Below are positions 1,408-40,960 of a stretch of DNA of 64,000 bases, piece after piece; position 1 is the first letter of the stretch; each line of letters starts with the position of its first letter. The stretch lies in sequence record NZ_CP145111.1. One strand, given 5' to 3'. Source of the stretch: a plasmid. A model generated the notes under the pieces. The model saw only the letters and a list, made by a program, of their open reading frames with translations, did not search any database and was not told the DNA's origin. Position numbers and translations under genes: made by a program.

Positions 1408-1516
1408 ATTCAACTTGATTATATAATTTTGTATACGTAATACGGCAGTAGGCATCTGGCTGAACAGTGTGCGATCCATGGTATTTGCATATTTTTTGAT
1501 GATATAAAACATCCTT

Positions 1517-1828
1517 TTAAATAAATTCCAGATCCATTAGGGACTCTTCCAAGCTATCAATGGTTTCATTGCGTTCCATATAATCAACCCAGCCATCATA
1601 AGATTTTCGCTGACGGGGCTTCATGGCTGAACTCAATTTGGCTTGGATATTGCTAATGAATTTAATGACAGCACTGCTGGTCTCATTTTTAATGCGCAGG
1701 CTACTCCACTTTTTATTGGTGGGGCGGTCTGCGTTTTGTTCGTTTAAGAACGCAGCATATTTATCTCGAAAATTATCGACAATCTGACTGTTTGCTTCCA
1801 AGTATTCTTCTAATTCAAACGTTGTCAT
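1517..1828 (-). CDS. hypothetical protein (103 aa)
   Basis: ORF with RBS GGAGGCTG upstream of ATG (MTTFELEEY...). Sits where an integrase would be expected, but has no recombinase motifs. Confidence 0.45.
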   Translation of the reverse strand: MTTFELEEYLEANSQIVDNFRDKYAAFLNEQNADRPTNKKWSSLRIKNETSSAVIKFISNIQAKLSSAMKPRQRKSYDGWVDYMERNETIDSLEESLMDLEFI

Positions 1829-1954
1829 AATAGCAGCCTCCATATTTAAGTTGTGAATCAACTGATTACATAGGACTCGGACCCATGACCAACCACCCGG
1901 CTAATCAAACGTACGTTCTTTTGAAGTGCTAAGATAAGTCCCCATATAGGGGAC

Positions 1955-2632
1955 TTAAAGGATTACAATACCCTTTATTTTGAAGCTTTCATTCTCAGTG
2001 ACATCCATTGGCGCATATTCAGGGTTCAGGCTGATCAATTGGCATTCATAACTATTTCGATGGTACTTTTTAACGTATGCTTTTCCATCTACGTATGCAA
2101 TAATAATTTGGCCATTAAATGCTTCTTCGGCATATTTAACAAAAATTATTTGCTGATCAGTAAATAATGGTTTCATTGAATCGCCGTTAACTTGTAAAGC
2201 ATAATCGTAATCAGGAATTATACCGGTGTAATCAACTTCTGTTGTATCATCTTGTAACTCCTCACCAGTACCAGCAGATACGGCGCCGAGAAGCTTAATT
2301 TTAGTCCTAGGTATATGAATGACATTGCTGTTTTGCTCTTTTAGCTGCCTATTAGCATAATCATAGACGTTTTGTTGACGATCTGATGTTAGGTCAGACA
2401 CTATATTGTTTATCTTTTCAGGTAAACTGCCGTTAGAAAGCCCCATTAATTCAGCAAGGGAAACATGCAAAGCGCTTGCAACATGCGCAACCACTTCAAT
2501 TGGTAGTTTTTCTATATCGCCTTTTTCATATCTGAATATTGTAGACCTAGAAACACCAATGGCTTCTGCAAGCACGTCGGCACTTATACCTTGCTGTTTG
2601 CGAATAGCTTTCATTCTTTCACCAACATTCAT
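1955..2632 (-). CDS. phage CI-like repressor (HTH_XRE + S24 LexA-like peptidase)
   Basis: N-terminal HTH GISADVLAEAIGVSRSTIFRYEKG. C-terminal S24 motifs (GDSMKP ... K). Divergently arranged to the cro-like gene. Confidence 0.85.
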   Translation of the reverse strand: MNVGERMKAIRKQQGISADVLAEAIGVSRSTIFRYEKGDIEKLPIEVVAHVASALHVSLAELMGLSNGSLPEKINNIVSDLTSDRQQNVYDYANRQLKEQNSNVIHIPRTKIKLLGAVSAGTGEELQDDTTEVDYTGIIPDYDYALQVNGDSMKPLFTDQQIIFVKYAEEAFNGQIIIAYVDGKAYVKKYHRNSYECQLISLNPEYAPMDVTENESFKIKGIVIL

Positions 2633-2799
2633 TTACAATTCCCTCCTTAATATGATAATTTTAGTATACCATATTGTCGCAAAAATGCAACAATAAAAAG
2701 TCGCGTTTTTGCGATCTTGCTATTGCATTTTGCGAAGTTAAGCATTATACTTTATTCATTGAGTCGCAGCAATGCGACTAGGAAGGAGAGGCTACCTAT
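2633..2799. promoter_or_regulatory. genetic-switch intergenic region with operator repeats
   Basis: Four operator-like sites of consensus TCGCA-N4-5-TGCGA (about 2677-2691, 2701-2714, 2726-2738, 2765-2778), including the perfect palindrome GTCGCAGCAATGCGAC. AT-rich -10-like elements on both strands. Confidence 0.5.
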
Positions 2800-3048
2800 A
2801 TGTTAGATATTAAAATTGATCGTCTAAAAGGGCTGATGGTTGAACGGCATGTAACTCACGAAGCATTGTCAATGGCTTTGGGAATTAACCGGAGCACTTT
2901 ATCTAGAAAATTAAAAGATGGCGGAAACAAGTTTACAATTGATGAAATAAAAAAAATGCAAAATTTTATTCCTCTTACAAATGAAGAAGTAGTTGACATT
3001 TTTTTAACAGAAAAAGTCGCATTAACGCGACCAAAACAATCAGTATAG
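2800..3048 (+). CDS. Cro-like HTH regulator (82 aa)
   Basis: HTH ALSMALGINRSTLSRKL. First gene of the rightward early operon. RBS GGAAGGAGAG. Confidence 0.7.
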   Translation: MLDIKIDRLKGLMVERHVTHEALSMALGINRSTLSRKLKDGGNKFTIDEIKKMQNFIPLTNEEVVDIFLTEKVALTRPKQSV

Positions 3049-3054
3049 AAAGGA

Positions 3055-3291
3055 ATGATCCACATGACAGATAAAAACGATGCATATAAAAAAATTGCTA
3101 AAGGAGTTGCTTGTCTAAATCAAGTTGAGTGGGGCATGACTAAAAGCATTATTGATCGATTGTTTGAAAAAAAGATCTCCCATATTCAACTTAACGACTC
3201 TGATCTTCAAAAAAATTTGGCAGACTATTTTGAAGATCAGAATAAAAGCGAAATGGACGATCTTTTCAAAAGTTTCCCATCTAAACCATAA
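3055..3291 (+). CDS. hypothetical early protein (78 aa, N-terminus MIHM)
   Basis: Begins inside the conserved block GAAAGGAATGATCCACATGA. Confidence 0.45.
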   Translation: MIHMTDKNDAYKKIAKGVACLNQVEWGMTKSIIDRLFEKKISHIQLNDSDLQKNLADYFEDQNKSEMDDLFKSFPSKP

Positions 3292-3293
3292 AT

Positions 3294-3527
3294 TTAGTGA
3301 TAACTATTTGTTTTGGAAAATTTGAATTCTCTTATTAAATCTTCATCATTCATTTTTTCCAGAAGGTGTTTGATCACAGGAAGTTGGCTTTTTAGAAATG
3401 GAACTAAATTAGAGTCATCCGTAACTTCCGATTCGATTTTGGGATCATGAGTCAGATCCATAAGCATATAACCTGTTAAAGCTGAAATAATAAACTTTCG
3501 ATCAGATTCTAATAAAAATTTTGTCAT
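3294..3527 (-). CDS. hypothetical protein (78 aa)
   Basis: Minus-strand ORF MTKFLLESDRK... with RBS GAGGTG 6 nt before ATG. The longer track ORF to 3626 is an upstream extension. Confidence 0.45.
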   Translation of the reverse strand: MTKFLLESDRKFIISALTGYMLMDLTHDPKIESEVTDDSNLVPFLKSQLPVIKHLLEKMNDEDLIREFKFSKTNSYH

Positions 3528-3576
3528 ATTATTCACCTCGATCAATTGGAATAACTCAAGTATACAACTGAAAGGA

Positions 3577-4293
3577 ATGAACCACATGAATGACTTAGTA
3601 ATCATGAAAGACAAACAAGCAGTCACAAGTAGCTTGCAAGTAGCAGATACCTTTGGTAAGCGACATGATCACGTGGCAGATAGTATTGATAGCTTAAAAA
3701 AAGATGTCCCCAATTTTGGGGAGATGTTTATCGAAACCAATTTACCAGATTCTTATGGTCGGAACCGACGCGGATATTACATGAACCGTGATGGTTTCAC
3801 CTTACTAGCAATGGGATTCACTGGTAGCAAGGCGCTTCAATTCAAACTCCAGTACATTGATGCATTCAACGAGATGGAAGATCAAGTTAAATTTCAAGTT
3901 CCAGCTACGTTGCCAGAAGCATTACGTTTGGCCGCTGACCAAGCAGAGAAAATTTCAGTGCTGCAGCCTAAAGCAGACTACACCGACAAAATGTTAGCTA
4001 ATCCAGGATTGGAAACAACATCGGTAATCGCTAAGAACTACGGCTACTCAACACGTGAGTTTAATAAGCTGCTGCACGGACTGGGCATTCAATACAAGCA
4101 GGGTAAAACATGGCTGTTGTATGCCAAGTATCAGAATCAAGGATACACACACGTTGAGCCTTACGGATACACCAACAGTGATGGCATCGACAAGGTACGC
4201 AACACAATGAAGTGGACGCAAAAAGGGCAACATTTCCTTTATGACTTTCTTGAATCAAAGGGAATCATGCCTAAAGTTGAGCAGACATCATAA
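3577..4293 (+). CDS. phage antirepressor, Rha N-terminal / KilA-C (ANT) C-terminal
   Basis: N-terminus MNDLVIMKDKQAVTSSLQVADTFGKRHDHV is typical of the Rha family. C-terminal ANT-like region. Confidence 0.75.
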   Translation: MNHMNDLVIMKDKQAVTSSLQVADTFGKRHDHVADSIDSLKKDVPNFGEMFIETNLPDSYGRNRRGYYMNRDGFTLLAMGFTGSKALQFKLQYIDAFNEMEDQVKFQVPATLPEALRLAADQAEKISVLQPKADYTDKMLANPGLETTSVIAKNYGYSTREFNKLLHGLGIQYKQGKTWLLYAKYQNQGYTHVEPYGYTNSDGIDKVRNTMKWTQKGQHFLYDFLESKGIMPKVEQTS

Positions 4294-8054: not shown

Positions 8055-8738
8055 ATGGAAAAAAGTGAATCAATTAAAAACTTGGCCACCAGCATGGCAC
8101 AATTCCGTAAGAATTTACTCAAAGCACAACCAAGTAAAGATGGAAAAAGTCATTATGGGAACTATGTAACTTTGGAAGACTTAACCGCTGCAGTAGATAG
8201 GGCGCTCCCAGAGTCGTTAGGTTATACGCAGGAAGCGACCAGCGATCCTAATGGTGTCTCTATTACGACTATGCTGTTTGATGCTAGTGGCGAGTACATC
8301 ATTTACAATCCACTTAGCATGCCAGTGCAGCGTAAAGACGCGCAGGCATTCGGCTCTGCTGAAACTTATGCACGACGATATAGTTTATCAGCAGCATTCG
8401 GTGTATCCGCTTCTAAAGATGACGATGGACAACAGGCAACTAAAGCGGCTCCTAACAACCGTACGGCACAACAACCAGCTCATAGGAATAACGGGACACA
8501 ACAAAGCAATCGTCAACCCCTGCCTGTAACTAAACAGCAGGCCACAACACTTAATGGATTGTTTGAGGCAATGAGTAAGGCAGCAAGCGCCCCAATTGAA
8601 GCTGTTAGAAACGGTTATCTGGAAAAATTAAACGTTAGCCAGGTCAAAGATTTGACGCATGATGGCGCTAACCAACTGATCAGCCTAGTGACTGTTCAAT
8701 TAAAAAATCAAAGTGAGAAGGGGAATTCTAATGATTAA
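8055..8738 (+). CDS. ERF-family single-strand annealing protein
   Basis: Motif [18 protein letters not shown] plus a Gln/Asn-rich C-terminus. Gene order ERF-SSB. Confidence 0.6.
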
Positions 8739-9162
8739 TCGAGTAGTTTTGACTGGACGACTAACCCGTGATGTGGATTTACGGTATACACAAGGCGGTG
8801 CCGCTGTAGCTACTTTCAATCTGGCCGTTGATCGGCGGTTCACCAACCAACAAGGTGAGCGCGAAGCTGATTTTGTTAGTTGCGTTATCTGGCGTAAGTC
8901 GGCGGAAAACTTTGCTAACTTCTTCCACAAAGGATCTCTGGTAGGTATTGAAGGCCGTATTCAAACACGCAACTATGAAAATCAGCAAGGCCAACGCGTA
9001 TACGTCACAGAAGTTATTGTTGAGAACTTCTCGTTCTTGGAATCAAAAAACTCTACTGGTAACGGTAGTTATCAAAATAATCGACCACAAAATAATACGA
9101 GTGATCCGTTTGCTAATAACGGTGGTTCCATTGATATTCAAGATGATCAGTTACCGTTCTGA
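8731..9162 (+). CDS. ssb: single-stranded DNA-binding protein
   Basis: OB-fold N-terminus [20 protein letters not shown]. Gly/Asn/Gln-rich tail ending DDQLPF. Confidence 0.85.
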
Positions 9163-9176
9163 TTTGAGGTGATTAA

Positions 9177-9893
9177 ATGCAGCGGTCACGATCAAAATAC
9201 TTTGAACGTAATGGAAAGTCATACTTGTTAGTCGAGCTTGATCATCATCCTAATTTAGACCATATCGAGACCATTAGCGGTTCACGTGACCAACTTTACC
9301 TGGATTGGGAACTAGCCGACACACGCAAAGCTAGGCCGCAACAACGACGTCTATTCTTTGCCCTGTTGAGTGACATTTATACCTGGTCAGGCATGCCTAC
9401 AGACTTTTTAAAAGAGCTGTTCTATCTGCAATATGAAGAATACACGTTTGGTAAACAGATTAGCCTGTCAGACACGACAGAATCGTCCGTAAGCGACGCT
9501 AACGTGTTACTCGACCTAGTTATCGACTTCATGTTTACGTGGCGTGTGCCGTTCAAGCAAGGCTATGAATTGCTACCGAGAGAGCAAGAGTATTACCAAT
9601 ATCAGTGTTGCCGGCATCGTCGGTGCATGGTGTGTGGCCGTGAACATTCGGATATTAATCACGTTGATACAGTTGGATCTGGCCGCAATCGTAATCATCT
9701 TGACCATACGCAACTACGAGTTAACTGTTTGTGTCGTGAGCACCATACAGAATGGCATAAGATTGGGCCGACAGCGTTTGGCGAGAAGTATCACATTCCA
9801 GTTGCTGGGATCAAGTTGGACGAAGAAACGTTGAGAAAGATTGGAGTTAGAGGAAATTATGGAAGTCACAGTAACGCGAGTCAAAAAGTATAA
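9177..9893 (+). CDS. Cys/His-cluster protein, putative HNH-like nuclease of the replication module
   Basis: C-terminal CCRHRRCMVCGREHSDINHVD...NHLDHTQLRVNCLCREHH motif. Confidence 0.4.
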   Translation: MQRSRSKYFERNGKSYLLVELDHHPNLDHIETISGSRDQLYLDWELADTRKARPQQRRLFFALLSDIYTWSGMPTDFLKELFYLQYEEYTFGKQISLSDTTESSVSDANVLLDLVIDFMFTWRVPFKQGYELLPREQEYYQYQCCRHRRCMVCGREHSDINHVDTVGSGRNRNHLDHTQLRVNCLCREHHTEWHKIGPTAFGEKYHIPVAGIKLDEETLRKIGVRGNYGSHSNASQKV

Positions 9894-10065: not shown

Positions 10066-10764
10066 ATGGACAAACCAGAAAAGCCCAATTATTACGCTAT
10101 CATTCCTGCAAGCGTCAGATATGATAATAACCTTCCGAGCAAAGCTTCTTTGCTTTATGGAGAGATTACGGCTTTGTGCAATCAAAAGGGTTACTGCTGG
10201 GCAAGTGATAGCTACTTTGCCAATTTGTATGGAGTAGGGAAGTCAACTATTCAAACTTGGCTAAAAGCTTTAGAAGACGATGGACATATTTCACGAGACG
10301 TTATTTATAAAGAGGGTACACGTGAAATTGAGCATAGGTATATCAGAATTTCGGTGGAGGGTATACCGAAAAATCAGGGTACCCCTATACCGAAAAATCA
10401 GAGAGATAATATTACAAGTATTAATACTACAGTTAATACTACAAGTAATAAAAAGAATAGTGCAGCTGTCGCTGCACCTTCCTCAATTGAGTCTGACTTT
10501 GAGGAAATCTGGGCAGCTTATCCCAACAAAAAAGGAAAAAAGCAAGCGTTTAACCATTACAAAGCTTGGCGTAAAAAGTCAGCAAAGCATTCCAACGATT
10601 ATCTTTTCAACCAGTTAAAACTGTACAAGCAGTATATTTCTCAAAATAAAGATTGGTACAGCCCTATGGATGGATCTACATGGTTCAATGGCCGGTTTGA
10701 TGATGAGTATCAAGTATCGACTGAACAAAAACATGAGGGCCGCGAGTATTGGACGGGAGGTTAA
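10066..10764 (+). CDS. phage replisome organizer (DnaD-like N-terminal domain)
   Basis: N-terminus YYAIIPASVRYDNNLPSKASLLYGEITALCNQKGYCWASDSYFANLYGV is typical of phage_rep_org_N. Contains internal direct DNA repeats. Confidence 0.75.
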   Translation: MDKPEKPNYYAIIPASVRYDNNLPSKASLLYGEITALCNQKGYCWASDSYFANLYGVGKSTIQTWLKALEDDGHISRDVIYKEGTREIEHRYIRISVEGIPKNQGTPIPKNQRDNITSINTTVNTTSNKKNSAAVAAPSSIESDFEEIWAAYPNKKGKKQAFNHYKAWRKKSAKHSNDYLFNQLKLYKQYISQNKDWYSPMDGSTWFNGRFDDEYQVSTEQKHEGREYWTGG

Positions 10765-10765: not shown

Positions 10766-11536
10766 ATGGAGCACGTTACTTTTGACCATGAATATATTCA
10801 ACGGCTAGCCAATGCCCACCATGTTGACCTGAACCACTTGCCAACTAAAGAAGAATTGGATCGTAAGACGGCTGAACAAGCAGCTCAACAATTGAAACGG
10901 GACAAAACGGCCCGGTACTATAGCTACTCGGTCTGGTCCGGAAACATACCGCTCAAGTTTTCGTTTGGCAACTGGGATATTGCTAAGCAGGACAATCCAC
11001 ACTTAGCTAAGTCATTAGGCAAGAAGGCATTCGTGTTGGCTAAGCAATTAGAAAACCAAAACTTCAATGTGGCTATGATGGGTGATCGTGGCGTTGGCAA
11101 AACGTCTTTAGCATTGGCCATGTTGGATCACCTGATGAGTCATGATCATAGTGGCATGTTTGTATCAACTGCTGAGCTGCTAAGAATGGTTAATGACAAA
11201 TATGAGGACACTTCAATTCGTTCCAAACTGATCAACATAACACGTTCGATGATTGAGGTTGATGTATTGGTACTAGATGATTTTGGCACGGAAGGCGGTA
11301 TGACTGGCAACATTAAACCGGTGCACAAGGATCTGCAAGACATCATGTATCGGGTATCTAACGCTAGAGTTGATTTTAATCACAACACCGCTAAAGGTAT
11401 CACCATCATTACGACCAACAATACCAAGGGACAGCTAAAAAATATGTATGAAGGCAAGTTCATTGATCGTGTATATCCAGATAACCCGGAACAGCAACTT
11501 ATTTTTGATGGCATGAAAGGGGTGCGTAACGTATGA
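10766..11536 (+). CDS. DnaC/IstB-like helicase loader ATPase
   Basis: Walker A GDRGVGKTSLA and Walker B VLVLDDFG. Confidence 0.75.
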   Translation: MEHVTFDHEYIQRLANAHHVDLNHLPTKEELDRKTAEQAAQQLKRDKTARYYSYSVWSGNIPLKFSFGNWDIAKQDNPHLAKSLGKKAFVLAKQLENQNFNVAMMGDRGVGKTSLALAMLDHLMSHDHSGMFVSTAELLRMVNDKYEDTSIRSKLINITRSMIEVDVLVLDDFGTEGGMTGNIKPVHKDLQDIMYRVSNARVDFNHNTAKGITIITTNNTKGQLKNMYEGKFIDRVYPDNPEQQLIFDGMKGVRNV

Positions 11537-13467: not shown

Positions 13468-13887
13468 TTGGTGAAACGATCGACGATTAGAACGGTAGAG
13501 GATATTCTACGTGATTATCCTAAGATTGATAAGTTAATTAAGGCTAGAGAAGAGGAATTGCGCCATCCAATAAAACAGGAAGATGACAATGTTGGTGGTG
13601 GCAGATCATCTATGATAGGCGATAGTGTAACTACGGTATTGATAAAGCTAGAAGAAGATGGTCCACTAAATCTTTTGAAACGAAAAAAGAGTGCAGTTCA
13701 AGAGTGTTATGCTAGTTCTGATGAGGATACTCAGGTAATAATCAAAGAATTGTATTTTAAAAAACGGCCACGGCTTAGTGTAGAGGGAATAGTTGCTAAT
13801 GGGCTAGTTAATTGTAGCCGAAGCAGTGCTTTTCTTTTAAAAAAGGAGTTCATTGAAAAGTGTGCCAAAATGCTAGGAATATACTGA
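13468..13887 (+). CDS. ArpU-family late transcriptional regulator
   Basis: ~139 aa. Lies immediately upstream of the packaging module. TTG start 6 nt after AGGAGG. Confidence 0.5.
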   Translation: MVKRSTIRTVEDILRDYPKIDKLIKAREEELRHPIKQEDDNVGGGRSSMIGDSVTTVLIKLEEDGPLNLLKRKKSAVQECYASSDEDTQVIIKELYFKKRPRLSVEGIVANGLVNCSRSSAFLLKKEFIEKCAKMLGIY

Positions 13888-22675: not shown

Positions 22676-22679
22676 GTTT

Positions 22680-23000: not shown

Positions 23001-23002
23001 CG

Positions 23003-23852: not shown

Positions 23853-23855
23853 ATT

Positions 23856-24944: not shown

Positions 24945-24957
24945 GGAGGGATAAGTT

Positions 24958-26397: not shown

Positions 26398-26443
26398 GTT
26401 TACCGACGCTCATGGCAATGTTGATCAGTCATTATTAGACAAG

Positions 26444-30606: not shown

Positions 30607-31790
30607 TGGCTAGAAAAACGAAGAAGCTTAATTTAAAGGGTAAGAGTGACAAGAAGATTGCCAACGAAGCGCAGAAATGGAAGAAAACTGTTTCTGCTGA
30701 TGCGGCCAAGATTTCCAAGGCCGGTAAGGCGATTACTGCCGCCCAAAAGAAAATTGACACAGCTAATGACTATCTAAACAAATCCGATGGCTATAAAGCT
30801 AAGAGTTCAGCTTACGACGCTCTTGAAACTCAAATCGAAGCGCAAGAGAAGTTGCTTGCTAAGACAAAGAGTTCTTCCAAGAAGAAAACAATTACTTCCA
30901 AAATTACGTCACTGAAAAAAGATAAAAAATCATTAGTAAGTGATATGAAGAAGATTGCCTCCTCAGCTGGTTACCAGAAACAAATGTCAGCAAAAGCCAA
31001 AGCACAAGCGAACATTAAAACGGAAAAAAGCAAGATTAGCAGTTTAAAGGCTAAGAAGTCTAAAGACAAAAAAATTTATGGTCAATATTCTTCTACAAAT
31101 GCTGCACGCAAGTTAGCTGCACGGAAAAAGCTTCAAAAGGCTAATGGCAAGCGTATTAGTTCTAAGATTAAAGCAGTCAAGAAAAAGTATGGTGGCCAAA
31201 CGGCTATCTATCGTGCTGATTTAAAGACTAGTCGAGTATTTATGCTAGGGGAATTTGATCCGTCAGAAACTAATGATCAAGATGTGCCAACTAATGCAGT
31301 TGACAAGTCTGATCCACGAACTAACTACAGCGTACGTAATTCTAAACAATTATCCGGGACTTACTATTTATTTGGTAAGTCTTTTTCTGATTGTGATAAG
31401 CAGTATGAAATCTTACAAGGTTGGGCACGTAAGGGCGTTGAGGTCACTGTACGAGGCTTCTCTAAGTGGAATCATGCTTATCTATCGTCAGTTGGCAAGA
31501 CGGCTTATACAGCAGGCAATAAAAATAGCATGCAGCTATCAATTACCTTCACGTATGCCCAAAAAGACAAAATTGCTTATGCCAATAAAAAGACTAAAAA
31601 GAAGTCGAAGTCTTCGACGGGAGCAAAGAGCGGTACCAAGAAAACAACGCATAAAACAGTAACGGTAAAGTCTGGTATGACTTATTGGTCAATTGCCCAA
31701 AGCCATAATGTGTCAGTTTCCAGCCTGGAAAAGATGAATAAGTGGCCCGCTGCTAAGTTGCCGGTTGGTGTGAAAGTGAGGTATCAATGA
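30606..31790 (+). CDS. LysM-domain tail protein (XkdP-like) with Lys-rich N-terminal half
   Basis: C-terminal LysM YTVKSGMTYWSIAQSHNVSVSSLEKMN. Confidence 0.65.
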   Translation: MARKTKKLNLKGKSDKKIANEAQKWKKTVSADAAKISKAGKAITAAQKKIDTANDYLNKSDGYKAKSSAYDALETQIEAQEKLLAKTKSSSKKKTITSKITSLKKDKKSLVSDMKKIASSAGYQKQMSAKAKAQANIKTEKSKISSLKAKKSKDKKIYGQYSSTNAARKLAARKKLQKANGKRISSKIKAVKKKYGGQTAIYRADLKTSRVFMLGEFDPSETNDQDVPTNAVDKSDPRTNYSVRNSKQLSGTYYLFGKSFSDCDKQYEILQGWARKGVEVTVRGFSKWNHAYLSSVGKTAYTAGNKNSMQLSITFTYAQKDKIAYANKKTKKKSKSSTGAKSGTKKTTHKTVTVKSGMTYWSIAQSHNVSVSSLEKMNKWPAAKLPVGVKVRYQ

Positions 31791-32125
31791 TGACTGTTCA
31801 TGACACGATACCAATCGAACCAGATGATATGCCATATAATCGTCAAGTAGATTTAGATTCAGGAAGTTATATCTTTGGATTTCAATGGAATGAAATTGAT
31901 CGTACCTTTACGATAGACGTTTCCACGCTTGATGGTGTTGCTATTCGTCAAGGCGAAGTGCTGGTGCTTAACCAACCACTTTGGCGGAATATTAACATTG
32001 ATGGCTTGCCGGCAGAAACGATTATTCCTCTGGACGAGTCCGGAAATGAAATTGAAATCGATCCAGGCAATCTGGGTGATACCGTTAATTTATGCATTGA
32101 TGATATTCCTGATGGCGAGGTGTGA
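31787..32125 (+). CDS. hypothetical tail protein (112 aa)
   Basis: ORF within the baseplate block. Confidence 0.4.
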   Translation: MMTVHDTIPIEPDDMPYNRQVDLDSGSYIFGFQWNEIDRTFTIDVSTLDGVAIRQGEVLVLNQPLWRNINIDGLPAETIIPLDESGNEIEIDPGNLGDTVNLCIDDIPDGEV

Positions 32126-32130
32126 TTGTA

Positions 32131-33063
32131 ATGTCAGTAAAAGTTAAAAGTGACGGTTACTATTGGGGATATACGACAACTATCGTGATTACTCACAACG
32201 GGGCCAAACTCACTTTATCTGAAAAAAACAGTGTTCCGATCAATTATGAAGTACCGTCTGATGACGGTGGCAGTCCGGCAACGTGTACAGTCACCGTTTT
32301 TAATTTGGCCAAAACACACCTCAATAAGATTCATAAAGGCGACCATATAACGCTGCATACGGGACCAACAGGGCTCTATGGTCTACTTACCGAGGGGACC
32401 ATTTCGCAAGTCTCACCGGAGACGAGAGACGGCATGGATAAGGAAACACAGATTACGTTCACTGAAGGTAAGGACTACAGCAAAGAAAAACGATTGTACA
32501 GCAAATTTAATGGTTCAAAAATGGTTACACATAAGGTTAAGACGAGCGACGGTAAGACAATTTCTTATCAAACTAAGCAAGTTAAAAAGGTAAACATTGC
32601 CTTTAAAAAGAATGTTAAAGCTAGTCAAATTATCGCTAGGATTAAACGCGACGCTAAGATTGACATTTCCACAGTGCATTTAAAAAAGAACAAGGTTTAC
32701 AAGAAAGGATACTCGCTTTCATCTAAGCCATTGGCCGCTATTAAATCAATCGCTAAGGATTGTGGGAGCAAGGTCTACTATCGACGAGGTGCAATTTATA
32801 TTGATGATTGGCAGAAGCCTAACCCATACAATGAGCATTTATATCTAGCGATGACTAATGGGCTAACGCAAGAGCCAACCTATAACAGCACTGACGATGG
32901 TTCAGCAACCTGGACGCTAGAGTGTTTCGATGATCCACGAATACTAGCTGGCTCAGCTGTCTATGTAAAATCGACGGAGATTACTGGATTGAAACGAGTG
33001 AAGAGTGTTACCCATACGCACGATCGAGATAGTTACAAAATGGAGGTGGTTGTTTATGCCTAA
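32131..33063 (+). CDS. XkdQ / late control D-like tail protein
   Basis: ~310 aa, in the position of XkdQ in PBSX-like order. Confidence 0.5.
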   Translation: MSVKVKSDGYYWGYTTTIVITHNGAKLTLSEKNSVPINYEVPSDDGGSPATCTVTVFNLAKTHLNKIHKGDHITLHTGPTGLYGLLTEGTISQVSPETRDGMDKETQITFTEGKDYSKEKRLYSKFNGSKMVTHKVKTSDGKTISYQTKQVKKVNIAFKKNVKASQIIARIKRDAKIDISTVHLKKNKVYKKGYSLSSKPLAAIKSIAKDCGSKVYYRRGAIYIDDWQKPNPYNEHLYLAMTNGLTQEPTYNSTDDGSATWTLECFDDPRILAGSAVYVKSTEITGLKRVKSVTHTHDRDSYKMEVVVYA

Positions 33064-33469
33064 AGTTAAAAAGAAAGTGGTTGATCCCAAGCACAAGATG
33101 TCTGATTTTCTGGAAAAAGAACTAATCCCGTTGATTTCGTCGCAGATTAATTGCACCATGATTGGCCGGGTCATTTCATACAGAAAAACTGATCATCGTT
33201 GTAGTGTTCAACCGTTGCCGCTACAGTCTGACGGGGACAAGCGCGCGCCTCTAGTTGAGTGCGTGGTGCCATCGTCAATTTGGCAACTTGATGAAGTTCT
33301 TGGGAAACTAAGCAAAAGTTGGAAGCCAATGAAAGTCGGTTCAGTTGTGAGCATTGGCTTTTGCGATCGTGAAATGGACAACTGGACGGGTAAGAGCAAC
33401 TACAAAATTGAAACCAAACGGGTTCACAGCCTACAAGACACAATTATACAGGCGGTGATTTTACCATGA
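33056..33469 (+). CDS. XkdR-like baseplate protein
   Basis: 137-aa ORF MPKVKKKVVDPK... Confidence 0.45.
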   Translation: MPKVKKKVVDPKHKMSDFLEKELIPLISSQINCTMIGRVISYRKTDHRCSVQPLPLQSDGDKRAPLVECVVPSSIWQLDEVLGKLSKSWKPMKVGSVVSIGFCDREMDNWTGKSNYKIETKRVHSLQDTIIQAVILP

Positions 33470-33864
33470 TTGCTTTTGGATTAGATGACACCGGTGACCT
33501 GGATTTTGATGCCAACACTGGTGTTTTTAATTTGGTTGAAGATGACGACGAGTTGGCACAAAAGCTAAGCTTATTGCTCAATATCAACACGGCAGAACTT
33601 ATGTGGAACGAGGATATTGGGATTGATCATAATGATCTACTAGCCAATGCAGACGATCAAGGGGTTATCCAGTCAATTCTCGCTGATTACTTACAGGAAC
33701 AATGGCCCGAAGAATTTGATGCGGTTGAGATCACTGACTTTGAGGTGAATGCTGAACAGCGAATCACTAACTTGTCAGCGACAGTAACCCTTAATGGCGG
33801 CACCACAATTGCGGCAACAGTCGGAGTAGATGAAGGAGGCGACGTTGATGCCACTAACGACTGA
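33466..33864 (+). CDS. XkdS-like baseplate protein
   Basis: 132 aa, acidic. Precedes the baseplate J gene. Confidence 0.45.
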   Translation: MIAFGLDDTGDLDFDANTGVFNLVEDDDELAQKLSLLLNINTAELMWNEDIGIDHNDLLANADDQGVIQSILADYLQEQWPEEFDAVEITDFEVNAEQRITNLSATVTLNGGTTIAATVGVDEGGDVDATND

Positions 33865-35083
33865 TACAGGATTTGACCGAAAAGAATTAGACGACTTACG
33901 TGATGATATTAATGCACTATTCATTAAGCGGTTTGGTGACGGCATTGACTTAGATGACAGTCAGACACCCGGCATGCTGGCAGGCGTGTTATCTGAGGTA
34001 GACGATACATTGGAAAAACTGGCCCAAGGCGTTTATAACTCATTCTTTGTGCTGAAAAGTTCCGGTGCTAACTTAGACGACTTGGCGGCAGAACTTAAGG
34101 TCTATCGTAAGCCTGCAACGAATGCTTATGTAGACTTGCAAATTGACGGGTACGTAGACCCAGATTCACCAACAATCATTCCAGAAGAAACGCAATTTTC
34201 CACACCAGATGGACAGGTATTTTCGACCGTTGCTGACACGACGATTACACAACAAGCTACTTACGTTGATAGTGGGGGTAATACGCAACCATTAGAAGAC
34301 GACGACGGTAATGCATTAGGCAGGAAGATCGTTCAAGCGGTAGCCATCGAGACGGGCACAGCTTCGAATGTCATGCCCAATACGATCATTAATCCGGAAG
34401 ACTCAATTGACGGTTTTTATGCGGTGACAAATCCTTCCGCAGCAACCGGTGGTGGTGATCCAGAAACGGATGACGAGCTACGTCAGCGCGTACTAGCTAA
34501 CCGTTTAAATACACCCAATTCAACGCCAAATGGCATTCAAACCGCTGTTAAAAATCTATCTGGGGTTACCGACGTCCGACTGATTAACAACAACACCATG
34601 AGCAAAGATAGTTACGGCAATCCGGCCAAGTCAGTACATTTGTATGTCATTGGCGGTGCTGATGCTGATATTATCCAAACTTACTTTGATTACTTACCAC
34701 CGCAATCCAACACGATTGGCTCAGTGATGGGGACTGCGACGGATATTGGTGGCCGTCAACACATTGTGGCTTTTGATCGAGCAGAAACGGTCCCTGTCTT
34801 CATTAAAGTCGATATTCATATTGATGATACAAAGTTTGATACGGACAATGGACCGGCCAGCATTAAAACAAACATCGTTAATTACTTTGACACATTGGGC
34901 ATGGGCGATAAGGTACTTTATTCTAAATTATTTGCTCCCGCGTATTCGCCGGTTGGTGTCACTGATGTGACACTAACACTGGGAACCAGTTTAGATAAAT
35001 TAACGGAGGCTGATGTAAGCGTTAGTGATTTTCAACTAGCGGTAACCAGTTCAACTAATATCACGGTCAATATAATCAAGTGA
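33848..35083 (+). CDS. baseplate J-like protein (XkdT)
   Basis: 411 aa. Position and size match baseplate J. Confidence 0.6.
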   Translation: MPLTTDTGFDRKELDDLRDDINALFIKRFGDGIDLDDSQTPGMLAGVLSEVDDTLEKLAQGVYNSFFVLKSSGANLDDLAAELKVYRKPATNAYVDLQIDGYVDPDSPTIIPEETQFSTPDGQVFSTVADTTITQQATYVDSGGNTQPLEDDDGNALGRKIVQAVAIETGTASNVMPNTIINPEDSIDGFYAVTNPSAATGGGDPETDDELRQRVLANRLNTPNSTPNGIQTAVKNLSGVTDVRLINNNTMSKDSYGNPAKSVHLYVIGGADADIIQTYFDYLPPQSNTIGSVMGTATDIGGRQHIVAFDRAETVPVFIKVDIHIDDTKFDTDNGPASIKTNIVNYFDTLGMGDKVLYSKLFAPAYSPVGVTDVTLTLGTSLDKLTEADVSVSDFQLAVTSSTNITVNIIK

Positions 35084-35092
35084 GGTGACTAG

Positions 35093-35695
35093 ATGTACCA
35101 AACTGAAGCAGATTTATCAAACGATTCGCTACGCGATTGGATAACGGCCATGCTGCCTGGAAAGCTTAATCAAGAAGATGATTCCAACAACCAACGGCTT
35201 CTCAATATTATCAGCGATATTTTTTTGGCACATAAGAATGACTTGCTCAACATTTCGGACCAATTGCGACTGTCAAAAGCTTCTGGTCAAGTTTTAACTG
35301 AAATTGCGGCAGATTACGGTGTCACACGGCTTGATGACGATGATGATTTTTTGCGCTTTCAGGTACGGTTACAGTTGCTTAAAAATCATAGTGGTGTGAC
35401 AACCAATGACATCAAAAAGCTCATTGCAACGGTCTTAAGCATTGATCCTAGCGTGTTTGATATTGATGGCACAGATAATCCAGAAGAGATCGAAGTGACC
35501 AATATTCCGTTTGACTTCAACTCTGGCGATAAGGCTGAGATCAAACGGAAGATTTTAACAAACGCGATTCAGTCAATGCTACCGCCAGAATATTTGTTGA
35601 AAGACTTACAGTACGCCGTAACGGCCAATAAGCCATTATATGTGGCTGTACATGCCCAAGCATATTCACAGATAACCGTAAAGGAGACGATATAA
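35093..35695 (+). CDS. XkdU-like tail protein
   Basis: 200 aa after the baseplate J gene. Confidence 0.5.
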   Translation: MYQTEADLSNDSLRDWITAMLPGKLNQEDDSNNQRLLNIISDIFLAHKNDLLNISDQLRLSKASGQVLTEIAADYGVTRLDDDDDFLRFQVRLQLLKNHSGVTTNDIKKLIATVLSIDPSVFDIDGTDNPEEIEVTNIPFDFNSGDKAEIKRKILTNAIQSMLPPEYLLKDLQYAVTANKPLYVAVHAQAYSQITVKETI

Positions 35696-37374
35696 TGGCA
35701 ACACCAAACGTTGGTATCTTAACCACCGCCGGTAAAGCTTTAATTGATAAGGTGAATTCCGGTCAAGCAAAAATAAGTTTCAGCAAAATTGTCTTTTCAT
35801 CGATGGATAATTCCCAATTATCCGATATGCAAGTCAAGGCTTTAACCGCAATTGCCCCACAAGAGGTGGTGGTTAGTTCACCAGAAACGACACTGGACAC
35901 CAATTCTGGAGAGACTCGTATTCGAGCTACCGGGACTAATGAAAAATTAGCCGACGGCGTATACGTTAAAACCTACGGGGTCTTCGCCAAAGACGATACC
36001 GGCAGCGAAATTTTATATGGTGTGACCGTATCACCCAACCCCAACTACTTCCCTGCTTATGATGGTGTCACCCCACAAGCAGTGACTTACAGCTACAAAA
36101 CTGTCATTCAAGAGACTAGCAATATTACCATGACGAACTCGAATGATGTGTATGCCAGTCAGGAAGACTTAACAGAAGCATTACAGCCTTATATCAAGAC
36201 AGTTGACGTTAATCAGCAACTGGATAAAAAAGTGAATATTGCTGATATGCGTAAACCAGCCAGCGATGTAGCGGGAATTGAAGAAGTTAACGCCAAACAA
36301 GATAAAATTGGCTACACACCTGCCGACGATTCCAAAGTTTTGCATTCAACTGTAACTCCATTAAATTCAACGGATATGAATACTGTTTTAACTGCTGGAT
36401 TTTATCAGTTATTTAATGGAACTAATGGAATACCGAATGGAGATAATTGGACTCTTTATCAGGTAATTCCTTTAGGTAGTTCAAATAGTACAAATGGGAT
36501 TCAACTTGCATACGAAACAAATAACACTGTTTTAGGAATACGTTCTTGGGATACTTGGGGTAGTGGTACTCATTTTTCTAATTGGGTTCAGTTTGCTGAC
36601 GATTCCAAAGTTGTTCACAGTTCAGATATGCGTAAACCAGCCAGTGATGTGGCAGGAATTGAAGAAGTTAATGCTAAACAGGATAAAATTGGTTACACGC
36701 CTGCTGATGATTCCAAAGTTGCCCACCTATCTGGCACAAACAATTTTGATACCGTCCCAACGGTCAAAAATAATCCGTTATTACTAGCAAGCAGTTTACC
36801 GTCTGACCTAGCACGAACGACTAAGGATGCCAATTTTACAGGAAAACTTCAAAAGTCTGGAATTGACGTGGCTACCAAGTCTGATGTTACAACGGCTGTC
36901 AGCACTGCTACTGCTAATATGGTTGATTCCAGCAAGCCTACAAACTTCACGGCCGGATTACAGTCAGGAGGTGTCGATGTCGCAACCGCGGCTGACTTAA
37001 AAAGCATTGAAGACAGTGCTTGGCGTCAGCTAGATAATAAGTATATTACAGTTCGTTCTGGGAAACTTTCGTCAAATACAAATATTATCTATAAAATTGA
37101 CCAAATAACAAAGCGAATATACTTATCAGGTTTTGTTATCGCATCGGAGGGGGCAGCAGTAACGGTTAATCTTAGTCATATTATTAAAGCCTCAACGAGT
37201 ACAGGCAACGGTATAACCTATTATAACGGTGATAGCAACAGTTTTGGCGTATCAGGACTTGACACTGGTAATACCTTTACAATAGATACAACCGATGATG
37301 ACTATTGTTTAATTGGATTTAGAATAGGTGGAAATTCTGACCCTGCATATTTTGAATATACTGAATTAGTATAA
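35695..37374 (+). CDS. tail fiber / receptor-binding protein
   Basis: 559 aa. Contains an internal ~100-bp direct repeat (36241-36340 and 36617-36716). Confidence 0.6.
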   Translation: MATPNVGILTTAGKALIDKVNSGQAKISFSKIVFSSMDNSQLSDMQVKALTAIAPQEVVVSSPETTLDTNSGETRIRATGTNEKLADGVYVKTYGVFAKDDTGSEILYGVTVSPNPNYFPAYDGVTPQAVTYSYKTVIQETSNITMTNSNDVYASQEDLTEALQPYIKTVDVNQQLDKKVNIADMRKPASDVAGIEEVNAKQDKIGYTPADDSKVLHSTVTPLNSTDMNTVLTAGFYQLFNGTNGIPNGDNWTLYQVIPLGSSNSTNGIQLAYETNNTVLGIRSWDTWGSGTHFSNWVQFADDSKVVHSSDMRKPASDVAGIEEVNAKQDKIGYTPADDSKVAHLSGTNNFDTVPTVKNNPLLLASSLPSDLARTTKDANFTGKLQKSGIDVATKSDVTTAVSTATANMVDSSKPTNFTAGLQSGGVDVATAADLKSIEDSAWRQLDNKYITVRSGKLSSNTNIIYKIDQITKRIYLSGFVIASEGAAVTVNLSHIIKASTSTGNGITYYNGDSNSFGVSGLDTGNTFTIDTTDDDYCLIGFRIGGNSDPAYFEYTELV

Positions 37375-37953: not shown

Positions 37954-38010
37954 CAGTCACTCAGCCAGTTAGTCAGTGCTTTTAATTTGTCCAAAATTAG
38001 GAGGAATATT

Positions 38011-38439
38011 ATGTTCAAAGAAATCACAGATGTGTTCAATTGGCTTAGTAATGCGGGAGTATTCGCTTTCTTACTAGTATTAATTCCCGCCGTATATAAG
38101 TTGGTAAAGCCAGTTTTAACTCACAAGGTACAGACAGAGAAGAATACTCACGTTAAGCAAGGCTTAGAATTTGGCTTAAACTTGGCGAATACGATTGTTC
38201 CAGAAATGGCAGTCATGGCTAGTTTATCCCTATCTGATCGCAAGAAGGAAGCAATCCGCTTCGTTAACGCTCAATTGACGGCCAATGGTTTCGACTTAGA
38301 TGGTCAAACTATCTCAGGACTGGTTGAGAAGGCTTACCAAACTTACAAGGTATCCGGTGGGGATAATCATGCCCCAATCTCTGTACCAGCACCAACGGAG
38401 GTCATGACCCCATCAGAAGGGACTGACAGCAATGACTAA
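38011..38439 (+). CDS. putative holin (142 aa, one TM segment)
   Basis: TM VFAFLLVLIPAVY. RBS AGGAGG. Directly upstream of the endolysin gene. Confidence 0.45.
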   Translation: MFKEITDVFNWLSNAGVFAFLLVLIPAVYKLVKPVLTHKVQTEKNTHVKQGLEFGLNLANTIVPEMAVMASLSLSDRKKEAIRFVNAQLTANGFDLDGQTISGLVEKAYQTYKVSGGDNHAPISVPAPTEVMTPSEGTDSND

Positions 38440-39247
38440 GAAAATTGTTGACCTATCCTCGTACCAATCCGACTCTTTGGCTTACATGAAGCAACTCAAG
38501 AAGTGGGGTGCTGATGGGATTATGGTCAAGTTAACCGAAGGTACTGGTTATCTCAGTCCCAAGGCTGGTACCCAGATTACCAATGGCTTCAAAGTGTTTG
38601 ATACCGTTGGGGTTTACCACTTCTTCCATGGCCGAGGAACAGCTGAAGCTCAATACTTTCTGGCTTGGGTTAAGAAGATGGGATTAGATAAGTCCACAGT
38701 ATTAGCCATTGATGTTGAAGCGCCTGATTTACCATGGAAGACGACCAGTCAGGTTAATGCCTTCCTTCGATACCTGATTATTCACGGGTACAAGAACGTG
38801 ATTACGTACGGTTCAGGTAGCTGGTTCAATGCTGGCCGAATTAATCGTTCCCAACTGGTAGATAAGGCAATCTGGGTGGCGGCTTATGGTGTTAGTCAAC
38901 CGGGAGTTAATAATGCCAACGCTTGGCAATATACTGATAACTGGCACGGCGTAGATTGCAGTTATGACTTCGACGGTAAGCTGTCTGATAAATCTAAAGT
39001 AGCGCATAAGAAAGCCTCATATTGGGCTGATAACGGCTTGTACGAGGTAATTACCAGTGAAGTTAACGTGTATGGTAAGCCAGCCCTGGACAAGGCTAAT
39101 AAGCGCCGTGTTCACTTCTCAAAGGGCAGTACCATTTACGGTAAGGCTGTCAAGTATGGCAAGGTGTACCGGATTAAGACTGATGTTGGTTACATCTCAG
39201 CTAACAAGAATTATGTGAAGCTGATTAGAAAGTCGGGTGGTAAATAA
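38432..39247 (+). CDS. endolysin, GH25 muramidase with C-terminal cell-wall-binding region
   Basis: N-terminus IVDLSSYQSDSLAYMKQLKKWGADGIMVKLTEGTGY is typical of GH25. Confidence 0.8.
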   Translation: MTKKIVDLSSYQSDSLAYMKQLKKWGADGIMVKLTEGTGYLSPKAGTQITNGFKVFDTVGVYHFFHGRGTAEAQYFLAWVKKMGLDKSTVLAIDVEAPDLPWKTTSQVNAFLRYLIIHGYKNVITYGSGSWFNAGRINRSQLVDKAIWVAAYGVSQPGVNNANAWQYTDNWHGVDCSYDFDGKLSDKSKVAHKKASYWADNGLYEVITSEVNVYGKPALDKANKRRVHFSKGSTIYGKAVKYGKVYRIKTDVGYISANKNYVKLIRKSGGK

Positions 39248-39519: not shown

Positions 39520-39551
39520 TGATAAACTAAGTTTTATCCAGGTACTATTTA

Positions 39552-39588
39552 TAAACTGAAAAGGCCACTCATCTCTTACGAGGTGGGT
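39552..39588 (+). terminator. rho-independent terminator ending the lysis operon
   Basis: GCCACTCatctcttacGAGGTGGGTGGC hairpin followed by T7. Confidence 0.6.
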
Positions 39589-39702
39589 GGCTTTTTTTAG
39601 TGAGTTGAGTGACATTTTCAATTGATTGCTATATAATTGATACGCCTTAATTAGGCACAAGCATTCCCCTAAATAATGTTTGTATAGATTGGCTTTAAAA
39701 AA

Positions 39703-39735
39703 AGTCCCCTACTTCGCATGGTAGAGGGCTTTTTT
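39703..39735. terminator. bidirectional terminator-like hairpin
   Basis: A7-AGTCCCCTAC...GTAGAGGGCT-T6. Confidence 0.4.
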
Positions 39736-39824
39736 GCGTGCATTCTGCTTAATTTAAACGGACAAGTATACGTCTAAAAGGTGAACGTGTCGTCTGAGAG
39801 CACGTAAGCATGGATAAAATAATA

Positions 39825-39862
39825 AAAAATAAATAATTTATTTTTTATTATTTATTATTAAA
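39825..39862. repeat. AT-rich palindromic repeat flanking par cassette 1 (left copy)
   Basis: AAATAAATAATTTATTTTTTATTATTTATTATTAAA, containing the palindrome AAATAAATAATTTATTT. Confidence 0.45.
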
Positions 39863-40090
39863 TTCGTCTGAATTGATTGCGAACTTTAGCATAGAGTCTA
39901 TGACATCAACTATCTTGGATTCTTGTCGATAGGCAATGTCTTTTACTTGCTTGTAAGTGGTTTCTCGGACTTGCACTGGACGAGTACTTTCTTTTTTTTG
40001 CTTAAATGGGCTTTCGTTATCGCCTAGTTGTTGGTTAGCCTGCTTTGCTAACTTGCCTAAAAAGTCATTAGCCATTTTCCATTTCTCCAA
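39848..40090 (-). CDS. small ParB/ParG-like partition partner (80 aa)
   Basis: Overlaps the 3' end of the ParA gene. Basic N-terminus. Confidence 0.45.
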   Translation of the reverse strand: MEKWKMANDFLGKLAKQANQQLGDNESPFKQKKESTRPVQVRETTYKQVKDIAYRQESKIVDVIDSMLKFAINSDEFNNK

Positions 40091-40856
40091 TCCGCTTTAA
40101 TTGTTCTTTTAGTACCATATCGTACATTCCAATTGCTCGTTTATCCCAATGGTCTTCATTCTTAATTCCTTCATTTGAAAAAAGCTTAACTCGCTCTTGT
40201 TGCCAAATTCTGTTAGCAAATACAGCATCTCCAAATGAATCTACGGCGGCTTGCGTTATTTCTTTATCAACTTTGGCGTCCTTTTTAACGAGATAAAGAA
40301 TAACACCGGCAACGTTAAATGATGCTTGATAATCGCTCTTTAATTGAAACATGTACTGAGCAGTTTTAAGAACGGATGTGTAAGCTTGTTTTTGAGTTTG
40401 TAATACTAATGATATATAGTCACTGGCTAAGATGGCGTTGTTAGTAAAAATTGAAAGTGTTGGTGGAACATCGATGATAATGTAATCAAATTGTTCCTTA
40501 AATTTTTTAATCAGCTCGCTTAGTATAAGCATGCGATCATGAGATTTAATCTTTTCAGCTTTACCGGGCCATAAGCTTAGTTCCCAATCAGCTGGAATTA
40601 TTGAAATATTATCAGTCAGAGCAACTACTGATTTGCTTAGATCAAAATTTAGAAGCCCGTTATAAAGAGATACAGTTGGTTCGATTTCTTTGTTAAAAGT
40701 AGCTTTCATAATTTCAGTTGCGTTAGCCTGCGGATCAAGGTCAATTAGCAAAACCTTGTTTTTATTAGAGCCTAATAAATATGTGTTCATGACGCTCAAT
40801 GTGGTCTTACCTACGCCACCTTTAAAGTTGAAATGTAATAACGTTTTAGCGCTCAT
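40068..40856 (-). CDS. parA: ParA-family partition ATPase
   Basis: Deviant Walker A NFKGGVGKTT. 262 aa. Confidence 0.85.
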   Translation of the reverse strand: MSAKTLLHFNFKGGVGKTTLSVMNTYLLGSNKNKVLLIDLDPQANATEIMKATFNKEIEPTVSLYNGLLNFDLSKSVVALTDNISIIPADWELSLWPGKAEKIKSHDRMLILSELIKKFKEQFDYIIIDVPPTLSIFTNNAILASDYISLVLQTQKQAYTSVLKTAQYMFQLKSDYQASFNVAGVILYLVKKDAKVDKEITQAAVDSFGDAVFANRIWQQERVKLFSNEGIKNEDHWDKRAIGMYDMVLKEQLKRIGEMENG

Positions 40857-40924
40857 AGCATATCCTCCTAATAAGATTAGAATAACACAAGCACGGAGTA
40901 ATTTAAAATAAATAATAAGTAATT

Positions 40925-40960
40925 TAAAATAAATAATTTATTATTTATAATTTATTATAA
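40925..40960. repeat. AT-rich palindromic repeat flanking par cassette 1 (right copy)
   Basis: AAAATAAATAATTTATTATTTATAATTTATTATAAA, a direct repeat of 39825-39862. Confidence 0.45.

Follow-up and report, generated by a model that had tools for sequence, protein, structure and literature searches.

The stretch of DNA considered here is a 64,000-nucleotide segment of the plasmid record NZ_CP145111.1 (the window), and its analysis indicates that positions 1–41987, together with about 630 bp lying upstream of the window, probably constitute a contractile-tailed temperate phage-plasmid of about 42.6 kb, of which the present copy would have become fused to plasmid DNA. This reading is drawn from sequence comparison and follows an earlier note on the same DNA, in which an integrase-less prophage kept as a plasmid with a ParA cassette was proposed; that proposal is supported by the occurrence of an identical circle and of collinear circular relatives.

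The identical circle is contig CABMJF010000019.1 (42,617 bp), which is 100% identical to window positions 1–41911 and 41936–41987 and reaches 682 bp further upstream than the window. The two ends of the contig adjoin each other exactly, and the resulting join, which reads ...AACGGA ATGTGGAAGTACCGCGGTGAATGT GGGTTAC..., is spanned with a 120-nt exact match by an independent contig from another sample. Apart from about 1.1 kb of non-coding sequence, the circle consists only of the phage, a gene for an S-layer-like protein, and a partition (par) cassette, and it has no plasmid Rep. Judged by this identity, the element of the window is one that occurs elsewhere as a closed 42.6-kb circle. The circular, extrachromosomal state, which the earlier note had left for checking, is accordingly what is found for the identical element, at 42,617 bp, and the relatives of the element are also circular records.

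Among these relatives, phage Lb (NC_047983.1 / MG020111.1, 43,416 bp, Heilongjiangvirus Lb) is collinear with the unit, and the plasmids pl12112-1 (CP016798.1, 44,555 bp, from L. brevis TMW 1.2112) and pLBN-2 (44,181 bp) are circular and have the same content in the same order. The par cassette is located between the lysis genes and the S-layer gene in all three, and none of the three records, which were examined in full, has an annotated integrase or plasmid Rep. Four further collinear plasmids of 43–44 kb come from L. brevis (three) and L. pentosus (one); the sister plasmids of pl12112-1 are pLBN-2, NZ_CP076340.1, NZ_CP113123.1, NZ_CP019739.1, and NZ_CP129545.1, and the circular relatives (six complete plasmids) span 43–44.6 kb. 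A scan of species-representative genomes identified contigs of 42.6 and 41.9 kb in L. mulengensis and L. muriae, and relatives are listed as viral genomes in IMG/VR. Insertions of IS605 and IS607 are present in the tail and early regions of relatives.

Phage Lb, pl12112-1, and pLBN-2 each align with 72–73% of the unit, at about 93% identity, the gaps in the alignments corresponding to mosaic modules: cI/cro, the opposite-strand open reading frames (ORFs), the initiator, the small terminase subunit, and the tip of the tail fibre. The unit resembles phage Lb in having no integrase, in the placement of a ParA-like gene and its partner between the lysis genes and the S-layer-like gene, in a conserved non-coding element of about 550 bp, and in its structural genes, but differs from it in ParA (31% identity), the initiator allele, the small terminase subunit, the N terminus of the large subunit, cI/cro, the C terminus of the tail fibre, and the cargo; moreover, phage Lb is a free 43.4-kb genome, whereas the copy in the window is fused to plasmid DNA. 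Plasmid pl12112-1 has the same ParA cassette (ParA-1) and the same palindromes as the window, but it and its sisters were submitted to the databases and annotated as plasmids, and a fusion with a second plasmid backbone is seen in none of them. The genus criterion of the International Committee on Taxonomy of Viruses is nucleotide identity of about 70% or more over the full length of the genome. For the unit and phage Lb, 72% aligned at 93% corresponds to about 67% overall, a value close to this criterion that was obtained without a dedicated intergenomic-distance tool. From these alignments the unit would belong to the group of phage Lb (Heilongjiangvirus), although it is borderline with respect to the genus threshold.

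The gene calls are based on Pfam, PHROGs, and NCBIfam profile searches of the ORFs of the window. In these searches the region from 1.4 to 39.6 kb, in Levilactobacillus-like DNA, contains an intact myovirus-type temperate phage gene set on the plus strand, with a divergent repressor:

1955–2632, minus strand: cI-like repressor with an HTH_3 domain and a Peptidase_S24 autocleavage domain (Pfam, 2.6e-25 and 2.6e-12)
2800–3048, plus strand: Cro-like helix-turn-helix protein (Pfam); a small ORF lies between this gene and the antirepressor gene
3577–4293, plus strand: Rha/KilAC antirepressor (Pfam)
8055–9893, plus strand: Erf single-strand annealing protein, SSB, and HNHc-type nuclease (PHROGs; precomputed Pfam matches to ERF, SSB, and HNHc_6)
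10066–10764, plus strand: DnaD-like initiator (phrog_270, 2.8e-45)
10766–11536, plus strand: DnaC-like helicase loader (phrog_50, 1.9e-40; NCBIfam DnaC/IstB families)
13468–13887, plus strand: RinA-family late-gene activator (NCBIfam TIGR01636, 1.5e-25, above its cutoff)
14627–16661, plus strand: small and large terminase subunits (profile matches)
17132–21718, plus strand: SPP1-type portal, MuF-like protein, DUF4355 scaffold, and major capsid protein (profile matches)
21735–37374, plus strand: connector/neck and contractile-tail genes, including a LysM protein (profile matches)
23856–24944, plus strand: tail sheath
26653–30606, plus strand: tape measure protein, 1317 aa
33830–37374, plus strand: baseplate J protein and tail fibre, the latter at 35695–37374
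37987–39247, plus strand: holin and GH25 endolysin; a 90-aa ORF completes the lysis module to 39519

The set of functions expected of a temperate phage is therefore complete, comprising the lysogeny switch, replication, packaging, virion, and lysis, as the earlier note had claimed, and the features that it describes are present at or near the positions given there. All modules are intact, and the ORFs are of full length in comparison with phage Lb (1317 aa for the tape measure, 596 aa for the portal, and likewise for others). The S24-type cI repressor would hold lysogeny and would make the prophage SOS-inducible. An integrase or excisionase, the lack of which had also been proposed, was not found: no ORF of at least 150 aa in the region 1–41 kb has a match to a recombinase of the tyrosine or serine type, none is present in the precomputed Pfam lists of the 100%-identical contig, and neither att-like repeats nor an integrase remnant were seen. 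Comparison with the circle shows that the prophage of this element, having no integrase, stays extrachromosomal.

Two side observations concern the packaging region. A 22–23-bp tandem repeat of about 3.5 copies at 14751–14826, inside the gene for the small terminase subunit, is a candidate pac site, and two tRNA-like elements lie on the plus strand in the 500 bp of non-coding DNA that separate the RinA-like activator from the terminase. The first (14015–14072) matches the Rfam tRNA family at 48 bits but has no anticodon arm and is not called by ARAGORN; the second (14137–14212) is a weak match to tRNA-Sec, its 26.8 bits being below threshold. This gap upstream of the terminase is conserved in pl12112-1.

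The par cassette directly follows the lysis genes and their terminator, and its ParA and small partner, which had been placed at 39848–40856 from the letters of the sequence, are present there. The features of the cassette are as follows:

39817–39859: AT-rich palindrome downstream of the par operon, with 18-nt arms that are 100% complementary; candidate centromere or operator
39848–40075, minus strand: partner of ParA-1, 75 aa (75–80 aa, the ORF extending to 40090); likely a ribbon-helix-helix centromere-binding protein
40068–40856, minus strand: ParA-1, type Ib Walker-type ATPase, 262 aa (Pfam AAA_31, 3.9e-34)
40897–40958: AT-rich repeat site upstream of the operon, overlapping the parA promoter and composed of a 21-bp tandem pair and a palindrome

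Residues 5–261 of ParA-1 align end to end with δ of pSM19035 (2OZE, the best solved structure, 1.9e-43), with the Walker box at residues 10–17, and the protein is small and lacks an N-terminal DNA-binding domain, as is characteristic of type Ib. Its best NCBIfam match is PrgP, although the score of 166 is below the equivalog cutoff of 400, and its match to P1 ParA is weak (1e-6). The partner has no sequence-family match in Pfam or NCBIfam and no detectable sequence similarity to ω; nevertheless, the alignment of its small family displays a β-α-α (strand-helix-helix) pattern, its AlphaFold2 model has a predicted local distance difference test score of 89–95 over residues 31–70, and the top Foldseek matches that superpose closely on the model are all ribbon-helix-helix proteins (ParG, CopG, Arc, AmrZ, and CdbA). 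The model thus suggests that the 75-aa partner is likely to be a ribbon-helix-helix centromere-binding protein.

The palindrome AAATAAATAATTTATTT is found at 39827–39843 (exact) and at 40927–40943 (one mismatch) and nowhere else in the 64 kb, as compared with 0.11 expected occurrences, and in none of 100 shuffles was the observed count reached. The sites are conserved in related par cassettes, and the upstream one overlaps promoter-like hexamers. Direct repeats of about 36 bp containing the palindrome had been described on the two sides of the cassette, and the palindrome is indeed present on both flanks, but the surrounding sequences are AT-rich imperfect palindromes and a 21-bp tandem pair rather than direct repeats of that length. 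The palindromes are putative centromere sites.

By its anatomy, a δ/PrgP-like ParA with a predicted ribbon-helix-helix partner, the par system is of type Ib. It resembles δ/ω of pSM19035 in the end-to-end alignment of ParA-1 with δ, in having a small adaptor, which is predicted to be of ribbon-helix-helix type, and in the repeats adjacent to the operon, and it resembles PrgP/PrgO of pCF10 in that PrgP is the best NCBIfam match of ParA-1, although the score is far below the cutoff. The centromere sites of the ω system are arrays of heptads, whereas the candidate sites of the window are AT-rich palindromes on both flanks, and its adaptor, as mentioned above, is without sequence similarity to ω. 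Segregation would therefore depend, by homology and anatomy, on a type Ib system made up of the δ/PrgP-like ParA, the 75-aa adaptor, and the flanking AT-rich palindromes. In phage Lb and pLBN-2 the same slot is occupied by a different ParA that is 31% identical to ParA-1; the retention of the slot while the cassette has been exchanged suggests that partition is needed by the element and is not hitch-hiking on it.

With respect to replication in the plasmid state, no plasmid Rep domain was found in the unit or in the non-phage ORFs of its relatives, and the following feature lies within the initiator gene:

10362–10451: cluster of short direct repeats, with a 16-nt unit present in two exact copies and a 12–15-nt unit in about three; candidate origin

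Origins located inside the initiator gene occur in other phages. From these repeats, the lack of a Rep domain, and the precedent of other phages, the DnaD-like/DnaC-like module of the phage is inferred to be the candidate replicon of the plasmid state; replication would start from the element's own DnaD-like initiator, with the origin probably inside that gene, and would use the DnaC-like loader. The alleles of the initiator differ among the relatives.

The left part of the window requires a revision of the limits of the element. Its features are:

1–1350, plus strand: 3′ part of the gene for the S-layer-like surface protein (486 aa), the start of which is 111 nt upstream of the window
1377–1406, plus strand: intrinsic terminator that ends the S-layer-like gene, in which the hairpin AAGCCTGAAT...ATTCAGGCTT precedes a run of T, as read from the sequence
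1517–1861, minus strand: ORF of unknown function, 103 aa from its ATG (phrog_7823, 3.8e-23)

The full S-layer-like gene is present in the 100%-identical contig, and the same gene, located between cI and par, has the annotation S-layer protein in phage Lb (orf53), pl12112-1, and pLBN-2, although the protein of the window belongs to no Pfam family. By this conserved position the S-layer-like gene is cargo of the phage-plasmid and not host DNA. The terminator at 1407, which had been regarded as host-side, thus ends a gene that belongs to the element itself, and the limits of 1408–40960 given in the earlier note are to be replaced by limits from about 630 bp upstream of the window, so that the S-layer-like gene is included, to position 41987 at the right. 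The slot beside cI contains, as had been noted, only the 103-aa ORF at 1517–1861; it is variable, with other cargo such as an ABM monooxygenase or DUF805 protein in relatives, and a PADLOC scan of the opposite-strand ORFs and of the S-layer-like protein gave no match to a defence system. The cargo between cI and par would thus include the S-layer-like gene and the structured non-coding element described below. As a side observation, the S-layer-like gene is a constant cargo of the family, yet its sequence is divergent between members; the protein could serve in lysogenic conversion or in a change of the phage receptor.

The structured element of about 550 bp is unannotated and is present twice, a copy lying beside each of the two par loci of the window:

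41037–41586, plus strand: conserved structured element, copy 1, in the phage-plasmid backbone
58272–58823, plus strand: conserved structured element, copy 2, 95.8% identical to copy 1

It occurs in 431 Lactobacillaceae plasmids of PLSDB, mostly at 93–98% identity and with near-full coverage in 353, and in every phage-plasmid of the Lb-type family that was examined; among the phage records searched, only phage Lb contains it. No Rfam family matches it at gathering or E-value thresholds. In eight copies, including two divergent ones, compensatory changes were observed in 17 of 60 predicted pairs, as compared with 4.7 ± 1.8 in shuffled alignments (none of 500 reaching the observed number) and at most 3 in slid controls, and the fold of the plus strand ends in an intrinsic terminator at 41334–41356. 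The element may act as structured RNA or as a signal in single-stranded DNA. An identification with the Rep-less "miniori" of p256 was considered; a published primer sequence is absent from the window, which does not decide against it, since the p256 sequence itself was not compared.

To the right of this element the window departs from the circle, and the following features are found on the two sides of the junction and beyond:

41887–41987: stretch of about 100 bp common to ordinary plasmids, with the junction at its right edge (41987/41988)
41988–64000: ordinary plasmid DNA, containing IS256, DUF305, IS30, two FAD-dependent oxidoreductases, IS3, ISL3, and IS1182
42003–42206: small ORF in the plasmid DNA beside the junction
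55919–56623, minus strand: small serine recombinase of the resolvase/invertase type (Pfam Resolvase, 1.9e-35; NCBIfam)
57063–57872 and 56741–57070, minus strand: second par operon, encoding ParA-2 and a DUF5388 partner, respectively
57933–58038 and 58092–58203: two arrays, about 13 copies of an 8-bp unit (TATAGTGC / TAGTTCTG), upstream of ParA-2
59196–64000: second copy of 41887–46691, 99.56% identical, a direct duplication of 4.8 kb at a spacing of 17,309 bp

Within the shared stretch a 24-nt patch (41912–41935) differs from the circle and carries the allele of the window's own second copy; at 41987/41988 the departure from the circle becomes complete, and the DNA to the right of 41988 is 98–99.7% identical to ordinary Lactobacillaceae plasmids. 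No gene for a replication initiator was detected in 41988–64000, and there is none in the 17.3-kb period of the duplication. No site-specific recombinase was found in the window other than the serine recombinase at 55919–56623, which is located outside the phage unit. The identity of ParA-2 to ParA-1 is 35%, and the 8-bp arrays are a likely candidate for the centromere or operator of its DUF5388-type par system. A small ORF with a BRCT domain follows the second 550-bp element and precedes the duplicated block, which consists of the small ORF, IS256, DUF305, a 188-aa ORF, IS30, and the beginning of a gene for an oxidoreductase. The two copies of this block differ at 21 positions, all within the first 820 bp; from 42708 to the end of the window they do not differ at all, and the repeat may continue beyond it. 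Of the insertion sequences, the IS1182-type transposase is split into two ORFs (53511–54764 and 54779–55234) and is therefore probably inactive, and the two IS256 copies differ at 42302 (C in copy 1 and G in copy 2), so that copy 1 lacks the ATG at which copy 2 starts.

The fusion is most simply explained by homologous recombination of the circle with a conventional plasmid, preceded or followed by a duplication. The circle would have been opened at 41987/41988 by recombination within the stretch of about 100 bp that it shares with ordinary plasmids, and the result would be a composite replicon of at least 64 kb that has acquired insertion sequences, a resolvase, a second par system, and the 4.8-kb direct duplication. 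Terminal over-assembly of a circular contig was considered as a cause of the duplication and was ruled out, given that the first copy is internal and that the copies differ at 21 sites. A related arrangement is seen in pLP-ZJ102 (NC_021904.1, an exopolysaccharide plasmid of L. plantarum), where a remnant containing a holin and a GH25 lysin (15745–18556) adjoins a DUF5388/ParA operon, and such holin-lysin remnants beside par are common in ordinary plasmids; they look like fossils of fusions between phage-plasmids and plasmids, which would fit repeated fusion and decay.

A join of this kind might also have been produced in assembly, through the shared 550-bp element and the repeats, in which case the element would in truth be a free 42.6-kb circle. 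Such a circle does exist at 100% identity, the join is in a sequence common to other plasmids, and the 4.8-kb duplication runs to the end of the window, but the structure of the junction region makes this explanation unlikely. An erroneous switch would be expected at the long 550-bp repeat, yet copy 1 of that element is followed by 300 bp of phage-plasmid-specific sequence (41587–41886), and the 21 differences in the first 820 bp of the duplicated block imply that copy 1 is not a re-used copy 2. In addition, composite plasmids of 108–114 kb with several par loci exist in related assemblies.

It is also to be considered that an integrative prophage inserted into a conventional plasmid and lost its integrase, with ParA and the replication functions belonging to the host plasmid, an alternative that had been raised together with the proposal of a phage-plasmid. 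The part of it that stands is that at least 22 kb of ordinary plasmid DNA, with a par locus and a resolvase of its own, is covalently linked to this copy, and it may be added that ParA-1 and the 550-bp element are found on non-phage plasmids as well, at about 97% identity. The loss of an integrase, in contrast, does not stand, because the Lb-type family never shows one. Since, furthermore, the identical element closes into a 42.6-kb circle without a plasmid Rep or other backbone, the same composition is found in phage Lb and in more than six independent circular relatives, no trace of an integrase or of att-like repeats was seen, and the par slot is conserved even where it contains a different cassette, this alternative is highly doubtful. 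That the element is a defective or domesticated prophage remnant, or a tailocin-like element on a plasmid with no infectious cycle, would accord with the composite being larger than the genomes of the family, with the IS605/IS607 insertions of relatives, and with the truncated lysis-par fossils of ordinary plasmids, but is very unlikely given that every module is intact with ORFs of full length relative to phage Lb, that the unit is 100% identical to a free circle, and that the tight size range of 42–45 kb across species suggests ongoing selection for packaging.

The phage-plasmid reading is therefore retained, but several observations weigh against it or limit it and should be recognized. The composite is at least 64 kb, as compared with 42–45 kb for every free relative, and from this size range it probably could not be packaged whole unless it were first resolved. 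Support for packaging of the whole element comes from a single source, the record of phage Lb, in which the par cassette is inside the genome. The formation of infectious virions and maintenance by the par and initiator genes are predictions from homology, and the left junction of the copy in the window lies outside the window. Exact matches to proteins of the window (the tail fibre, cI, ParA-1, Erf, the small ORF at 42003–42206, and ParA-2) led only to the 42.6-kb circle, to short contigs, or to unrelated plasmids. The superposition of the partner model on its ribbon-helix-helix matches (root mean square deviations of 1.2–1.8 Å over about 40 residues) has weak E-values (>0.4), which are usual for a domain as short as this one. 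Relatives with 94–99% identity and an identical ParA-1 are located inside 2.3-Mb contigs: the loci in JAMRWK010000002.1 (2.33 Mb) and JAMRWL010000001.1 (2.32 Mb) do not differ to the right of locus position 4030 but diverge to its left, where one continues as phage with a KwaB-domain gene and the other abuts chromosomal-type genes (YjeF_N, CBAH, LVIS_2131). These copies may be integrated or rearranged forms, or assembly joins. Finally, a literature search found no publication on phage Lb or on L. brevis phage-plasmids.

A more speculative proposal can be made for the 550-bp element, namely that it is a portable, Rep-independent determinant of maintenance or replication and that, together with the adjacent stretch of about 100 bp, it provides the homology for repeated fusions of phage-plasmids with ordinary plasmids, by which par cassettes and cargo are exchanged, the window being a fresh cointegrate. 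We view this as possible but rather unlikely; if it were true, the window would have captured an intermediate in the traffic between phage-plasmids and plasmids.

The earlier note had compared the architecture of the element with those of P1 and N15, and the comparison is appropriate for the lifestyle, that of a temperate phage that is extrachromosomal and has active partition in place of an integrase. It does not extend to the machinery: P1 has ParA/ParB of type Ia, RepA, and Cre-lox, and N15 is linear and has a protelomerase, whereas the system of the window is of type Ib with a small partner of predicted ribbon-helix-helix fold, no domain of RepA, Cre, or protelomerase was found in any scanned ORF, and the relatives are circular. 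Phage-plasmids of lactobacilli have been predicted computationally in the pLP39 community, which includes 17 putative phage-plasmids, 14 of them from lactobacilli, with a mean size of 40 kb (Pfeifer et al. 2021, PMC7969092). Its members are loosely related to one another and none has been shown experimentally to be a phage-plasmid, and phage Sha1 is named as a homologous phage (PMC7969092); Sha1 shares about 5% of the early region of the window at 81% identity. NC_021904.1 was considered as a candidate for pLP39 and was rejected, being pLP-ZJ102, the ordinary exopolysaccharide plasmid with a lysis-gene remnant that is mentioned above. The surveys of L. brevis prophages that were consulted describe attL/attR sites on the chromosome, make no mention of prophages on plasmids, and appear to have missed such elements. 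The element is thus of a known kind, in that phage-plasmids of lactobacilli have already been predicted and near-identical sequences are in databases under other labels.

Phage-plasmids have been well studied in enterobacteria, Bacillus, and Clostridium, and the group that was located in lactobacilli is a computational prediction. The element described here, with an identical free circle and a deposited genome of the same family, that of phage Lb, offers a concrete model for the phage-plasmids of lactobacilli, and many of the "plasmids" of brewery and food strains of L. brevis would really be prophages. This has a practical side, L. brevis being both a spoiler of beer and a starter in foods and the cargo including an S-layer-like surface protein. 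The fused copy in the window, together with the lysis-par fossils of ordinary plasmids, would illustrate the flow of genes between phage-plasmids and plasmids.

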